A DNA stretch of 64,000 bases from Eledone cirrhosa. Taxonomy: Eukaryota. Positions 8,419-36,329 of the stretch are shown one piece after another. The notes beneath the pieces were generated by a model, which saw nothing but the letters and a program-made list of their open reading frames with translations, searched no databases and was not told the origin of the DNA. Position 1 is the stretch's first letter. Each line of letters starts with the position of its first letter. The position numbers were made by a program, and so were the translations under genes. The stretch covers positions 6,448,001 through 6,512,000 of the forward strand of contig OZ024764.1 of assembly GCA_964016885.1 (NCBI GenBank). Reading direction: 5' to 3'.

Positions 8419-9480
8419 ATCATCATCATCATCGTTTAAGGTCTATCTTCCACGCTAGCATGGGTTTAGACGGGAGTTGTCCCACTTGAGGCAAGATTGG
8501 TTGTCCTGCTCGCATAGGACTGTCTGGCGGGTTTTCTACGGCTAGATGCCCTTCCTAACACCAACCATGTTTACATACAGTGTGGACTGGGAGCCTTTTT
8601 ACCACGTCTCCTACACAACCACTTTACAGTGGGGACTGGGAGCCTTTTTACCACGTCTCCTACATGACCACTTTACAGTGGGGACTGGGAGCCTTTTTAC
8701 CGTGTCTCCTACATGACCACTTTACAGTGGGGACTGGGAGCCTTTTTACCGTGTCTCCTACATGACCACTTTACAGTGTGGACTGGGAGCCTTTTTACTG
8801 TGTCTCCTACATGACCACTTTACAGTGTGGACTGGGAGCCTTTTTACCACGTCTCCTACATGACCACTTTACAGTGGGGACTGGGAGCCTTTTTACCGTG
8901 TCTCCTACATGACCACTTTACAGTGTGGACTGGGAGCCTTTTTACTGTGTCTCCTACATGACCACTTTACAGTGTGGACTGGGAGCCTTTTTACCACGTC
9001 TCCTACATAACCACTTTACAGTGTGGACTGGGAGCCTTTTTACTGTGTCTCCTACATGACCACTTTACAGTGTGGACTGGGAGCCTTTTTACCATGTCTC
9101 CTACACAACCACTTTACAGTGTGGACTGGGTGCCTTTTTACCATGTCTCCTACATGACCACTTTACAGTGTGGACTGGGAGCCTTTTTACTGTGTCTCCT
9201 ACATGACCACTTTACAGTGTGGACTGGGAGCCTTTTTACTGTGTCTCCTACATGACCACTTTACAGTGTGGACTGGGAGCCTTTTTACCACGTCTCCTAC
9301 ATAACCACTTTACAGTGTGGACTGGGAGCCTTTTTACTATGTCTCCTACATGACCACTTTACAGTGGGGACTGGGAGCCTTTTTACCACGTCTCCTACAC
9401 AAACACTTTACAGTGTGGACTTTACAGAGAAAGGGTGGTGTTGGATGGAGTATGGGTAGTGGTGTGGGGTGTATATTTGG
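8419..9480 (-). mobile_element. RTE-type LINE 3'UTR copy with expanded internal 40-bp repeat
   Basis: (ATC)n tail and gcccttcctaacaccaacc motif; matches 27617-28005 and 49577-50043. Confidence 0.75.
8578..9428. repeat. 40-bp minisatellite (cagtgtggactgggagcctttttaccacgtctcctacatgaccacttta-like), ~21 copies
   Basis: Clear 40-bp period. Confidence 0.95.
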
Positions 9481-12129: not shown

Positions 12130-13230
12130 TCTAGCTTGTATCTTTATAAATCTTAGCATTTGTCCTTGTATTGAGTACTGTTGTCACATCTGGGGTCTCT
12201 GCTGTGTACCTTGAGAGTTTAGATAAGATCCAAAGAAGAATAACCAATATTAATGGTCATGACTTATTATGTCAGCTTCAATCCCCATCACACCAAATGT
12301 TGCCTCTCTTGGCCTTTTTTATATTTTCATGAGAATTGTTCTGAAGAGTTCACCTCTTTGTTGCTTCATATAACACTAACGGAGCACCAGCATGGCAGCT
12401 AGGCCTCATATAACCCTAACGGAGCACCAGCATGGCAGCTAGGCCTCATATAACCCTAACGGAGCACCAACATGGCAGCTAGACCTCATATAACCCTAAC
12501 GGAGCACCAGCATGGCAGCTAGGCCTCATATAACCCTAACAGAGCACCAACATGGCAGCTAGACCTCATATAACCCTAACGGAGCACCAACATGGCAGCT
12601 AGGCCTCATATAACCCTAACGGAGCACCAGCATGGCAGCTAGGTCTCATATAACCCTAACGGAACACCAGCATGGCAGCTAGGTCTCATATAACCCTAAC
12701 GGAGCACCAACATGGCAGCTAGACCTCATATAACCCTAACGGAGCACCAGCATGGCAGCTATGCCTCATATAACCCTAACGGAGCACCAGCATGGCAGCT
12801 AAACCTCATATAACCCTAACGGAGCACCAACATGGCAGCTAGGCCTCATATAACCCTAACAGAGCACCAACATGGCAGCTAGGCCTCATATAACCCTAAC
12901 GGAGCACCAACATGGCAGCTAGGCCTCATATAACCCTAACGGAGCACCAGCATGGCAGCTAGGCCTCATATAACCCTAACAGAGCACCAACATGGTAGCT
13001 AGGCCTCATACATTGAAGTTCCTATAATCACAAATTCTATTCTGACAGTTTCTTCCCTCACATATCTCACCTATGGAATTTACTTCCAGTTTCTTACTTT
13101 CTGAACCACTAACTACAATTTGCAAGGATTCCAAGGCTACATCAAACATCTTCTCTCCCCTTGAATTATTTTCTCTCTGTCTTGTACTGTTCCCTTTTCA
13201 GTAACCCCTTACATTTTAGTAGCTTTATTG
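12130..13230 (+). mobile_element. Decayed CR1/L2-group LINE ORF2 C-terminal fragment interrupted by a minisatellite
   Basis: Frameshifted peptides CIEYCCHIWG, LESLDKIQRR, NVASLGLFY, CSEEFTSLL, then FYSDSFFPHISHLWNLLP, YNLQGF. Confidence 0.75.
12364..13010. repeat. 40-bp minisatellite cctcatataaccctaacggagcaccagcatggcagctagg x16
   Basis: Exact 40-bp period from 12364 to 13004. Confidence 0.95.
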
Positions 13231-23455: not shown

Positions 23456-24172
23456 TATTGTCAGATTTAAATATATAAAATAACATTCATTTTAAAAACC
23501 ACCACATTTCCAACACCACACCACACCACAGTAGCGACAACACCACACCACACCACACCACACCACCACAACAACAACAGCAACCACACCACACCACACC
23601 ACACCACCACAACAACAACAGCAACCACACCACACCACACCACAACACCAACATGACCACACCAACACCAACACACCAACACCACAACACCACAACACCA
23701 ACATTACCACACCAACACCAACACCACCACAACACCAACATGACCACACCACCACACCAACACCACACCACCACCACAACACACCAACACCAACATTACC
23801 ACACCAACACCACACCACCACCACAACACACCAACACCAACATTAACACCAACACCACAACACACCAACACCAACATTACCACACCAACAACACCACCAC
23901 AACAACACCACACCACAACAACACCACACCACGCCAACACCACACCACGCCAACAATACCACTCAACCATTGCTACAACACTACAAGCCTCACTGTGACA
24001 CACACCACCATCTCTACCACTAGACACCACACCACACTGCAGCTCTTAACAGTACCACACCAGACAACCCATCATTTCTGTGTCCTCTACTTTATTGCTA
24101 GACTGGTTGACCTCATGTCGTTTATGTCAGGAAGTGGGTTGTGTTCTTCAGCAAGACACTTCACTCCTATGA

Positions 24173-25173
24173 GAAACCTCCTATGAGATACAACCTTGTA
24201 GGAGGCCAGCTAAACCTACATAGGTGTGAGTTGTAACAACATGATAGGACTGGGGTCCCTATCATTAAAAGACCGAAGAAACCTCCTATGAGATACAATC
24301 TTGTAGGAGGCCAGCTAAACCTACATAGGTGTGAGCTGTAACAACATGATAGGACTGGGGTCCCTATCATTAAAAGACCCAAGAAACCTCCTATGAGATA
24401 CAACCTTGGAGGAGGCCAGCTAAACCTACATAGGTGTGAGCTGTAACAACATGATAGGACTGGGGTCCCTATCATTGAAACACCCAAGAAACCTCCTATG
24501 AGATACAATCTTGTAGGAGGCCAGCTAAACCTACATAGGTGTGAGCTGTAACAACATGATAGGACTGGGGTCCCTATCATTAAAAGACCCAAGAAACCTC
24601 CTATGAGATACAACCTTGGAGGAGGCCAGCTAAACCTACATAGGTGTGAGCTGTAACAACATGATAGGACTGGGGTCCCTATCATTGAAACACCCAAGAA
24701 ACCTCCTATGAGATACAATCTTGTAGGAGGCCAGCTAAACCTACATAGGTGTGAGCTGTAACAACATGATAGGACTGGGGTCCCTATCATTAAAAGACCC
24801 AAGAAACCTCCTATGAGATACAACCTTGGAGGAGGCCAGCTAAACCTACATAGGTGTGAGCTGTAACAACATGATAGGACTGGGGTCCCTATCATTGAAA
24901 CACCCAAGAAACCTCCTATGAGATACAATCTTGTAGGAGGCCAGCTAAACCTACATAGGTGTGAGCTGTAACAACATGATAGGACTGGGGTCCCTATCAT
25001 TAAAAGACCCAAGAAACCTCCTATGAGATACAACCTTGGAGGAGGCCAGCTAAACCTACATAGGTGTGAGCTGTAACAACATGATAGGACTGGGGTCCCT
25101 ATCATTGAAACACCCAAGAAACCTCCTATGAGCTACAACCTTGTAGGAGGCCAGCTAAACCTGCATAGGTGTG
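24173..25173. repeat. 105-bp tandem repeat (~9.5 copies) with 210-bp higher-order dimer, SINE-derived
   Basis: gaaacctcctatgag at 24173, 24278, 24383...; alternating variants; contains the SINE hairpin atgatagg(g)actggggtccctatcat. Confidence 0.92.
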
Positions 25174-25460
25174 ATGAGCTGGCAATTTCCAGTTTTGTTT
25201 TTATGTCAGGAATCTGGTCAAGATATAAAAGATCTGATTGTCACCCTGTTGGGTTTCTAGCAAACACTGCCTCATAACTGCTTTGGTGGTGATGGGAGCC
25301 AGTTAAGGTGCAGATGGACCTGATCATATAACAGGTTGTACTGGGTCGTGTCACAAGTAGCACTCGTGAGTGTCCTTGCACAATTGGCTTGTATCATCAT
25401 CATTGTTTAACGTCCATCTTCCTCGCTAGCATGGGTTAGATGGTTTTTATATATATATAT

Positions 25461-30982: not shown

Positions 30983-31586
30983 AGATAACAAGATATCGTT
31001 TAAGGTAATCCAAGTAGACATACAGGACTAATGAAACAATTGTTAATACTTTAAATAAACCCTATTGTACTCTTTTATTACATATATATATATACATATC
31101 TGCTTCCCCTCTCTCTGTATCTCTCACCTTCTTTATACCCTCTCTGCCAGTCACACTCTCTCTCTGCTGGCCTCTTCCTCACACTTCCACTCACCCACTC
31201 TCTGCTTCTCCCCCTCTCTCACTTCCTCCCGTTTGACCTGTGTGAAATCCTCTTCTCTCTCACACCTCACCCATGTCGGATGGTCTGTATCTCTCGTCCA
31301 TGATTTCACCAATCTTAAGCTTACAGATATCATGTACTTGTCTCTTCCTATCTTTCCGTTGCAATACCATCTTTGTTTGTTTACATGTCTTGCTCGCTTC
31401 ACCCTATTTTACTTGTCCCAATAACTGTATTTAGTTATTGTTCGCACCAACCAGAGGTATATGATTTTTAAAGCGATGAAATACCAATGAAGGTTGGAAG
31501 ATCACTGATGAAGGACTAACTTTATTCATATGTAACCCATGTGCAACCACGCAACACTCCATTTTTCTTATATTTATATATTTATA

Positions 31587-31631
<45 letters not shown>

Positions 31632-31700
31632 AAAAAGAGATGAAATCGAAAATGCAACTGGAGTCTTATTTTTTTAAAAAATATATATATTTATTTGGTT

Positions 31701-31738
31701 CCTTTACCGGTTTCGCAGTTCTTCTGCTTTTCAAAAGG
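31701..31738 (-). ncRNA. Minimal type-I hammerhead, U3-A8 variant, GUA site (copy 1 of 4)
   Basis: RC: cctt TTGAAAA gcag-aagaa-ctgc GAAA ccgg T A aagg. Confidence 0.75.
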
Positions 31739-31804
31739 TGAGTTGAGATGGAGGGTCTGTGGTTTTGGTAAAGGAACCAAATAAATATATATATTTATTT
31801 GGTT

Positions 31805-31842
31805 CCTTTACCGGTTTCGCAGTTCTTCTGCTTTTCAAAAGG
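31805..31842 (-). ncRNA. Minimal hammerhead family F, copy 2
   Basis: Identical to copy 1, +104 bp. Confidence 0.75.
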
Positions 31843-31908
31843 TGAGTTGAGATGGAGGGTCTGTGGTTTTGGTAAAGGAACCAAATAAATATATATATTT
31901 ATTTGGTT

Positions 31909-31946
31909 CCTTTACCGGTTTCGCAGTTCTTCTGCTTTTCAAAAGG
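31909..31946 (-). ncRNA. Minimal hammerhead family F, copy 3
   Basis: Identical, +208 bp. Confidence 0.75.
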
Positions 31947-32012
31947 TGAGTTGAGATGGAGGGTCTGTGGTTTTGGTAAAGGAACCAAATAAATATATAT
32001 ATTTATTTGGTT

Positions 32013-32050
32013 CCTTTACCGGTTTCGCAGTTCTTCTGCTTTTCAAAAGG
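32013..32050 (-). ncRNA. Minimal hammerhead family F, copy 4
   Basis: Identical, +312 bp. Confidence 0.75.
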
Positions 32051-32217
32051 TGAGTTGAGATGGAGGGTCTGTGGTTTTGGTAAAGGAACCAAATAAATAT
32101 ATATATTTTTTTAAAAAATAAGACTCCAGTTGCATTTTCGATTTCATCTCTTTTTCTTTATACTTTCACTCGTGTAGGACACCTCGGTTATTTTTCATTT
32201 TGTAAAAAAAACCTCAC

Positions 32218-32279
<62 letters not shown>

Positions 32280-33819: not shown

Positions 33820-36070
33820 GCCCACACTGTAAAGTGGTCATGTAGGTGTCACAACAAAAAGTACCCAGTCCACACTGTAAAGTGGTCATGTAGGTGACAC
33901 AACAAAAAGTACCCAGTCCACACTGTAAAGTGGTCATGTAGGTGTCACAACAAAAAGTACCCAGTCCACACTGTAAAGTGGTCATGTAGGTGTCACAACA
34001 AAAAGTACCCAGTCCACACTGTAAAGTAGTCATGTAGGTGTCACAACATAAAGTACCCAGTCTACACTGTAAAGTGGTCATGTAGGTGTCACAACAAAAA
34101 GTACCCAGTCCACACTGTAAAGTGGTCATGTAGGTGTCACAACAAAAAGTACCCAGCCCACACTGTAAAGTGGTCATGTAGGTGTCACAACAAAAAGTAC
34201 CCAGTCCACACTGTAAAGTGGTCATGTAGGTGTCACAACAAAAAGTACCCAGTCCACACTGTAAAGTGGTCATGTAGGTGTCACAACAAAAAGTACCCAG
34301 TCCACACTGTAAAGTGGTCATGTAGGTGTCACAACAAAAAGTACCCAGTCCACACTGTAAAGTAGTCATGTAGGTGTCACAACAAAAAGTACCCAGTCCA
34401 CACTGTAAAGTAGTCATGTAGGTGTCACAACAAAAAGTACCCAGTCCACACTGTAAAGTAGTCATGTAGGTGTCACAACATAAAGTACCCAGCCCACACT
34501 GTAAAGTGGTCATGTAGGTGTCACAACATAAAGTACCCAGTCCACACTGTAAAGTGGTCATGTAGGTGTCACAACAAAAAGCACCCAGTCCACACTGTAA
34601 AGTGGTCATGTAGGTGTCACAACATAAAGTACCCAGTCCACACTGTAAAGTGGTCATGTAGGTGTCACAACATAAAGTACCCAGCCCACACTGTAAAGTG
34701 GTCATGTAGGTGTCACAACATAAAGTACCCAGCCCACACTGTAAAGTGGTCATGTAGGTGTCACAACATAAAGTACCCAGTCCACACTGTAAAGTGGTCA
34801 TGTAGGTGTCACAACATAAAGTACCCAGCCCACACTGTAAAGTGGTCATGTAGGTGTCACAACAAAAAGTACCCAGTCCACACTGTAAAGTGGTCATGTA
34901 AGTGTCACAACAAAAAACACCCAGCCCACACTGTAAAGTGGTCATGTAGGTGTCACAACAAAAAGTACCCAGTCCACACTGTAAAGTGGTCATGTAGGTG
35001 TCACAACAAAAAGTACCCAGTCCACTGTAAAGTGGTCATGTAGGTGTCACAACAAAAAGTACCCAGTCCACTGTAAAGTGGACATGTAGGTGTCACAACA
35101 AAAAACACCCAGCCCACACTGTAAAGTGGTCATGTAGGTGTCACAACAAAAAGTACCCAGTCCACACTGTAAAGTGGTCATGTAGGTGTCACAACAAAAA
35201 GTACCCAGTCCACTGTAAAGTGGTCATGTAGGTGTCACAACAAAAAGTACCCAGTCCACTGTAAAGTGGACATGTAGGTGTCACAACAAAAAACACCCAG
35301 CCCACACTGTAAAGTGGTCATGTAGGTGTCACAACAAAAAGTACCCAGTCCACACTGTAAAGTGGTCATGTAGGTGTCACAACATAAAGTACCCAGTCCA
35401 CACTGTAAAGTAGTCATGTAGGTGTCACAACAAAAAGTACCCAGTCCACACTGTAAAGTAGTCATGTAGGTGTCACAACAAAAAGTACCCAGTCCACACT
35501 GTAAAGTGGTCATGTAGGTGTCACAACAAAAAACACCCAGCCCACACTGTAAAGTGGTCATATAGGTGTCACAACAAAAAACACCCAGCCCACACTGTAA
35601 AGTGGTCATGTAGGTATCACAACAAAAAGTACCCAGTCCATACTGTAAAGTGGTCATGTAGGTGTCACAACAAAAAACACCCAGCCCACACTGTAAAGTG
35701 GTCATGTAGGTGTCACAACAAAAAACACCCAGCCCACACTGTAAAGTGGTCATGTAGGTGTCATGACAAAAAGTACCCAGTCCACTGTAAAGTGGACATG
35801 TAGGTGTCACAACAAACAACACCCAGTCCACACTGTAAAGTGGTCATGTAGGTGACACAACAAAAAACACCCAGTCCACACTGTAAAGTGGCCATGTAGG
35901 TATCACAACAAAAAGTACCCAGTCCACACTGTAAAGTGGTCATGTAGGTGTCACAACAAAAAGTACCCAGTCCACACTGTAAAGTGGTCATGTAGGTGTC
36001 ACAACAAAAAACACCCAGTCCACACTGTAAAGTGGACATGTAGGTGTCACGACAAAAAGTACCCAGCACA
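33820..36070. repeat. 40-bp minisatellite cacactgtaaagtggtcatgtaggtgtcacaacaaaaagtacccagtc, ~56 copies
   Basis: 40-bp period with some 38-bp units; runs into an RTE-type tail at 36070-36217. Confidence 0.95.
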
Positions 36071-36329
36071 CATTGTCAATGTGGTTGGTGCTAAGAAGGG
36101 TATCTAGCTGTAGAAACCTAGCCAGAAACTCTCCTATATGAGCGAGACATGGTCACCCAACCCAACTAACCGTCTAACCCATGTTAGTGTGGAAGATAGA
36201 CGTTAATCGATGATGATGGTGGTGGTGTGGTGGTGGATTCGCTCCTAAAAATTTCTGAAGAAGCACAAATCCTAACAAATGTGTTTATGGAAGACCAGCA
36301 GTCACCCATTGATACTGGACTCCCTTCTC

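Follow-up and report, generated by a model that had tools for sequence, protein, structure and literature searches.

The window analysed here is a 64,000-nucleotide stretch of the genome assembly of Eledone cirrhosa, and it contains a tandem array of four identical 104-bp units followed by a 14-bp overhang, for which Tandem Repeats Finder returns a period of 104 and 4.2 copies and whose period-104 identity is perfect by exact comparison. On the minus strand each of the four units holds one minimal type-I hammerhead motif, made up of a 4-bp stem I, a U3-A8 core, a 4-bp stem II with G10.1-C11.1, and a stem III that is a six-base palindrome. Outer inverted arms of 84 bp enclose the array, one of them lengthened by about 60 nt, and (TA)n lies on both sides. 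The unit borders are occupied by three perfect 46-bp palindromes with one predicted cut in each, so that three of the four cuts are covered. The features, in window positions, are as follows.

31569-31628, no strand: (TA)n target microsatellite, left side (repeat scan; a TA run lies within 140 nt downstream of the anchor in 97 of 100 family arms)
31625-31766, minus strand: forward pseudo-LTR arm, from the last hammerhead unit to the short 3' end (all 142 bases match the 3' pseudo-LTR of the RT-endonuclease copy L055)
31679-32108, no strand: tandem array, 4 x 104 bp plus the 14-bp overhang (Tandem Repeats Finder and exact comparison)
31679-31692, no strand: 14-bp AT-rich direct repeat at the left array boundary, recurring every 104 bp (the array on C12 starts at the same tract)
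31701-31738, minus strand: minimal type-I hammerhead motif, U3-A8, predicted cut 31705/31704 (motif reading)
31767-31812, no strand: perfect 46-bp palindrome, first of three, centred on the internal TA tract; hairpin of -27.8 kcal/mol
31805-31842, minus strand: hammerhead motif, predicted cut 31809/31808 within a palindrome (motif reading, folding)
31871-31916, no strand: perfect 46-bp palindrome, second of three
31909-31946, minus strand: hammerhead motif, predicted cut 31913/31912 within a palindrome (motif reading, folding)
31975-32020, no strand: perfect 46-bp palindrome, third of three
32013-32050, minus strand: hammerhead motif, predicted cut 32017/32016 within a palindrome (motif reading, folding)
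32068-32089, no strand: head-to-head junction of the original insertion, once per unit (four genome matches at up to one mismatch, all here)
32079-32162, plus strand: inverted pseudo-LTR arm, 84 bp (99% complementary to 31625-31708)
32095-32108, no strand: 14-bp direct repeat at the right array boundary (exact comparison)
32163-32223, plus strand: tail extension of about 60 nt, on the inverted arm only; in full elements it leads to ORF1
32224-32269, no strand: (TA)n target microsatellite, right side (repeat scan)

The preliminary description of this DNA had reported a four-copy 104-bp tandem, a minimal type-I hammerhead with a U3-A8 core in every minus-strand unit, and the four cut positions given above, and on these points it was accurate: in the assembly the units are identical and periodic without a break from 31679 to 32108, the motif is found in four out of four units, and all four cut coordinates are correct. 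The 46-nt palindrome, the 84-bp inverted arms, the one-arm tail and the flanking (TA)n are additions to it. At the junction (32068-32089) both arms start upstream of the cut, the forward arm by about 62 nt and the inverted arm by 4 nt. Elsewhere in the window there are other minisatellites at 24172-25174, 33822-36085, 8576-9421 and 12366-13010, with units of 105, 48, 49 and 40 bp, respectively; no host exon was recognised among 43 reading frames at 24-42 kb of the window, and the array may lie inside an intron.

An Rfam scan of the window by E-value gave 71 matches at E<=10, none of them to a hammerhead family, and a scan at the gathering threshold gave one weak tRNA match only, so that the assignment of the motif rests on motif reading together with the conservation of the core and stem III in other families. 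The tRNA-like match (39926-39983) is probably the head of a SINE, and a microRNA was considered and rejected, the Rfam matches being driven by the hairpin and below threshold. A pattern combining the U3-A8 core with the palindromic stem III has 3,426 genome matches against 42 for a control pattern, and the first 100 of these matches listed include families with unrelated stem II sequences that still pair; the corresponding C3-G8 pattern has 123 matches against 164 for its control. Stem I in the other U3-A8 families amounts to only 1-2 contiguous pairs at 14 of 15 loci, the fifteenth belonging to the array's own family, and covariation support is therefore confined to stem II. Within the family of the array the core columns are kept in 77-80 of 80 arms, but since the flanks are likewise 96% identical this is no sign of selection; stem I is 3 bp long in 41 of the 80. 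At least two other repeat families (L182-L196 and L021) have the U3-A8 core and palindromic stem III with a different stem II, a link to a frame of a Penelope-like element (PLE) being visible only at L190/L191, and a further repeat family (L167-L181) carries a C3-G8 hammerhead-like core without immediate stem I pairing. The U3-A8 variant has been published for Schistosoma PLEs (PMC4209133).

Comparison with other genomic copies shows, at the level of sequence, that the array motif belongs to the pseudo-LTR (pLTR) of a young autonomous PLE with a reverse transcriptase (RT) and a GIY-YIG endonuclease (EN). A 22-mer of the pLTR has 16,942 exact matches in the genome. An 81-bp query from the locus matched at 61 places, many of them paired with an inverted copy, and a GIY-YIG frame upstream of one of these, used as the next query, gave at least 150 matches at 95-100% identity, with 18 of the 150 listed in 775-aa frames. 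Of these 150, 20 loci picked for long RT-endonuclease frames were fetched, and the terminal 142 nt of the array are present at all 20 with 89.5-100% identity, downstream of the frame in 19; copy L055 is identical to them throughout, and copy L047 has the order pLTR-ORF1-RT/EN-pLTR with a period of 4,679 bp. The preliminary description had traced the motif to the minimal hammerheads of Penelope pseudo-LTRs, an origin upheld by these parent copies and by the published U3-A8 variant (PMC4209133). In the 775-aa frame Pfam finds RVT_1 at E 1.5e-6 with 28.5 bits, slightly below the 29.6 cut-off, and GIY-YIG at E 3e-6, above its cut-off. The family thus shows the features of EN+ PLEs (RT with C-terminal GIY-YIG, direct or inverted pseudo-LTRs, an optional tail and a pLTR hammerhead motif) and those of Neptune/Nematis (a CX2-5CxxC linker before the endonuclease, a CCHH motif in the translation, and (TA)n targets); the cysteine linker and the (TA)n targets point to Neptune or Nematis, a clade placement by features compared with PMC8557442. 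A 400-aa ORF1 begins about 30 nt past the tail (L047:2859-4061; also L045, L048, L051, L054, L057 and L058), and in seven of the seven copies retaining the ORF1 start it overlaps the RT frame, in the -1 frame, at a U-rich heptamer; a frameshifted ORF1 is mentioned in the legend to Fig. 1 of Craig et al. 2021 (PMC8557442).

The footprints left by the family were counted in the first 100 anchor matches on C1 (L075-L104 and L114-L163), a sample from one chromosome end that leans to young copies because an exact anchor was needed. More than half of the arms (52/100) start 61-75 nt upstream of the predicted cut, 43 of them at 67-74, while two start exactly at the cut and four extend past the aligned range. 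A TATA box starts 30-35 nt before this 5'-end peak, which makes the peak a likely transcription start; in L047 the distances from the cut back to the starts of the upstream elements are 102 nt for the TATA box, 151 nt for a CCAAT box and 180 nt for a site that we take to be E2F-like. Because the array begins at about -62, downstream of the putative start, it would have no promoter of its own. At the cut itself 89 arms break off, compared with 37 at a single control position; of the 89, however, 31 are fused to TA repeats, a class that the control pattern leaves out, and like-for-like rows, judged by eye, number 35 at the cut against 24 at the control (27 with all four window units), so that there is no clear excess over that single control position. 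The scarcity of 5' ends at the cut and the want of a clear excess of breaks there suggest that most templates are probably uncut by the hammerhead. As to the other end, 62 of the 100 arms are tailed and 38 short; half of the arms lie in fold-backs, forming 25 head-to-head pairs within 5 kb, and 23 of these 25 combine one short with one tailed end; of the 50 unpaired arms, 37 are tailed. In the green anole Poseidon element PAc two start sites (3' ends) bound the tail (PMC11167929), and pairs of short and tailed ends are what would be expected if both of these start sites prime one insertion.

The hammerheads of the array were assessed by equilibrium folding, whose energies leave out tertiary contacts, magnesium and proteins and do not follow a co-transcriptional series. 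At all four sites of the whole 599-nt element the nucleotide preceding the cut has a probability of 0.002 of being unpaired and stem I one of 0.0 of forming (0.0-0.016 for stem I in multimers). Forcing a double hammerhead costs 15.4 kcal/mol in two units, 17-31 in four and about 32 in the whole element; with the antisense half shuffled (100 shuffles) the cost has a median of 5.5 and a range of 2.9-15.2 kcal/mol, the top of which almost equals the two-unit value. Removal of the upstream arm from a four-unit RNA leaves the last cut free (unpaired probability 0.93), and the nucleotide preceding the cut is equally free in the parent RNA (0.93), where stem I is weak (0.085). Since the unit includes the inversion junction, the hairpin of 27.8 kcal/mol would bury the cut, and in three of the four repeats the palindrome is expected to prevent self-cleavage. 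The proposal in the preliminary description that the tandem arrangement supplies a dimer partner in cis and releases 104-nt monomers fares poorly against this prediction; read-through RNA is expected to form long hairpins in place of hammerheads, with few or no 104-nt monomers, and on the folding model the array is probably inert and not a mobile ribozyme RNA. Dimers and trimers of published minimal hammerheads are described as cleaving poorly (PMC4209133).

Across the assembly the unit junction has no match at up to one mismatch beyond the four within this array, and by this search there are no dispersed copies of the 104-bp unit. The preliminary description had called the array a candidate miniature retrozyme, a reading at odds with this single location and with an array start downstream of the putative promoter; tandem hammerhead units are indeed present, but dispersed unit copies and a canonical hammerhead able to fold were not found. 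It had also suggested a genome search for further arrays, and here the answer is divided: the unit itself occurs nowhere else, but a palindrome pattern search recovered, besides this locus, a second array with another junction on C12 (L069:1146-2080, G000:C12:33.81 Mb). This array has five units of 182 bp, one of them 186, within a fold-back that likewise has one short and one tailed arm; it uses the same AT tract as its boundary, all five units carry a hammerhead motif on each strand, and one unit has a 4-bp longer junction and a substitution. A search allowing two mismatches in the palindrome added five loci, no arrays among them, and the palindrome searches returned arrays of four and five units but none of two or three. 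A genome pattern search further found 160 fold-backs joined at internal AT tracts without a core (100 of 320 rows listed), and three loci switch direction at the neighbouring T/A tract; fold-backs with 0, 1, 4 and 5 cores thus exist, always hinged at self-complementary AT tracts, and the core-less, collapsed forms may have arisen as primary junctions and not by deletion.

Some further observations concern these hinges. The three-segment insertion L166 (G000:C11:13.78 Mb) reverses at the T/A tract, and its last-made arm extends further 5' than the middle arm and would therefore have been copied from another template. At L209/L210 (G000:C1:348.96 Mb) both arms of a fold-back start exactly at the predicted cut and are joined by a 20-bp palindrome, which could reflect either a jump over stem I or a pair of cut templates. 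The boundary within the T-run/A-run tract behind the internal TA repeat (31668-31680 and 32106-32118 in the window, and family-wide) slides: the lengths of the two runs are anticorrelated (Spearman -0.78, 49 of 100 arms scored), their sum is 12-13 in 34 of the 49, and they usually differ between the two arms of one insertion.

The reading that we favour, with a probability of roughly three in four, is that a short head-to-head Penelope insertion entered a TA microsatellite, that its 104-bp core was likely multiplied in place by slip-back between the 14-bp repeats, and that the hammerheads are passengers, predicted to be buried. Reverse transcription from the two start sites of the element, one for each target strand, would have set a short and a tailed arm head to head. 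Being self-complementary, the internal TA tract reappears after inversion as a second copy in direct orientation, which gives a 14-bp repeat with 104-bp spacing; the intervening arms pair around a loop of 58 nt and bring both copies together at the base of the hairpin. Synthesis may then have slipped from the second 14-bp copy back to the first three times, by hairpin-assisted slippage of DNA synthesis, each round adding one unit and reproducing the junction exactly, probably in one burst during insertion or soon after. The ends of the array coincide exactly with the 14-bp repeat, and the occurrence of four- and five-unit arrays without those of two or three favours a burst over stepwise growth, while also fitting an artefact; two arrays are few from which to argue any mechanism. 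Serial insertion into the internal TA tract was also considered and rejected: it would leave element ends and a differing junction in each unit. More tentatively, and in our estimate with the odds somewhat against it, PLEs in general might prime both target strands from two start sites on uncut RNA, the polymerase circling the hairpin junction repeatedly and so producing a hammerhead array in one insertion event. Subscription papers aside, a literature search judged mostly by title found no title setting out such a model for PLE inverted repeats.

Against the preferred reading of an insertion multiplied in place we count the model of Arkhipova et al. 2013 (PMC3846280), who already describe an inverted pLTR bearing a tail and who derive head-to-head repeats from self-priming on an antisense RNA template. 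A different and unlikely, though not negligible, account holds that the multiplication is an artefact of sequencing or assembly, a polymerase or assembler having looped through the hairpin of a real one-unit fold-back. The identity of all four units, the missing two- and three-unit arrays and the known trouble that tandem and inverted PLE structures cause in assemblies (PMC8557442) would suit it, but the C12 unit with its longer junction and substitution is not expected from simple looping, and the array pattern occurs at two loci only, yet about half of the sampled arms (50/100) lie in fold-backs. Among the contig pieces listed from four sequencing runs, with repeats skipped and a further 20,503 pieces outside the list, none spans the array or its junction.

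Two other accounts give the RNA a role. It is rather improbable that an array born passively is nevertheless active, its read-through RNA being cut into 104-nt hairpin monomers or circles with the help of the element's own protein or of co-transcriptional folding, as a nascent retrozyme. Such activity could draw on four intact tandem motifs, on the precedent of the anole PLE hammerhead, which cleaves only with its protein and which the element does not need for insertion (PMC11167929), and on the proposal that local amplification of pLTR ends is a source of retrozymes (preprint 10.64898/2026.07.22.740005), but it must contend with a folding penalty of 15-32 kcal/mol, an insertion without a promoter, family 5' ends that are not clearly in excess at the cut, and the Xenopus tandem elements of the same preprint, of which one of nine tested cleaved and eight did not. 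Least probable of all, and by our estimate very improbable, is a true non-LTR retrozyme, in which the array would derive from a self-moving circular RNA of 104 nt, reverse-transcribed as a multimer. An arrangement of head-to-tail units, each with a single hammerhead motif, agrees with the working definition of that preprint (10.64898/2026.07.22.740005), its energy filter apart, but the junction is confined to a single locus, the array stands in register inside the pair of arms of a single insertion, a fold-back of one unit, with its lone hammerhead, cannot release a circle, and described retrozymes carry canonical hammerheads (PMC7229834).

One practical consequence is that screens for tandem repeats with hammerheads can miscount amplified fold-backs as retrozymes. 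The family is more useful than the array: it is young and huge, and it offers countable footprints of how PLE inverted repeats form, the origin of which is named as an open question by Craig et al. 2021 (PMC8557442). These footprints are the short-plus-tailed pairing in 23 of 25 pairs, the 5' ends 30-35 nt behind a TATA box, and the little sign of hammerhead-cut templates. If true, the model of two start sites and a circling polymerase would account for the inverted repeats of PLEs, for their tail on one side only and for one way in which retrozyme-like satellites originate, and this genome holds thousands of family copies on which to test it.

Several known systems invite comparison. The animal non-LTR retrozymes (Cervera and De la Pena 2020, PMC7229834; Li et al. 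2026, preprint 10.64898/2026.07.22.740005) share with the Eledone array the tandem type-I hammerhead units, the kinship with PLE pLTRs and the small number of repeats, and its 104-bp unit, which the preliminary description had thought unusually small, lies within the 51-972 bp given for tandem hammerhead repeats in the preprint. Unlike these retrozymes, the array, known from sequence alone, occupies a single locus, includes an inversion junction in its unit, has a cut predicted to be buried and carries a minimal hammerhead. PAc of the green anole (Frangieh et al. 2024, PMC11167929) is alike in its two 3' ends bounding the tail, its AT-rich targets and its templates apparently uncut at the hammerhead, but it is a Poseidon element, of a different clade, and the short-plus-tailed pairing and the 5'-end peak are counts from the Eledone genome. 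The C-terminal EN+ PLEs of Neptune/Nematis type (PMC8557442, PMC3846280) resemble the Eledone family in architecture: RT is likewise followed by GIY-YIG with a CX4CX2C linker, and they have pseudo-LTRs, an inverted 5'-truncated copy, a tail at one end, (TA)n targets, an upstream ORF in another frame and a pLTR hammerhead; their tail measures 30-40 nt against about 60 in the Eledone family, and the multiplied fold-back core is a feature of the Eledone locus that the relevant passages of these two papers do not describe. The motif itself finds its nearest counterpart in the U3-A8 variant of the minimal PLE hammerheads (Cervera and De la Pena 2014, PMC4209133), with which it shares the short stem I, the G10.1-C11.1 pair, the palindromic stem III and the U3-A8 core.
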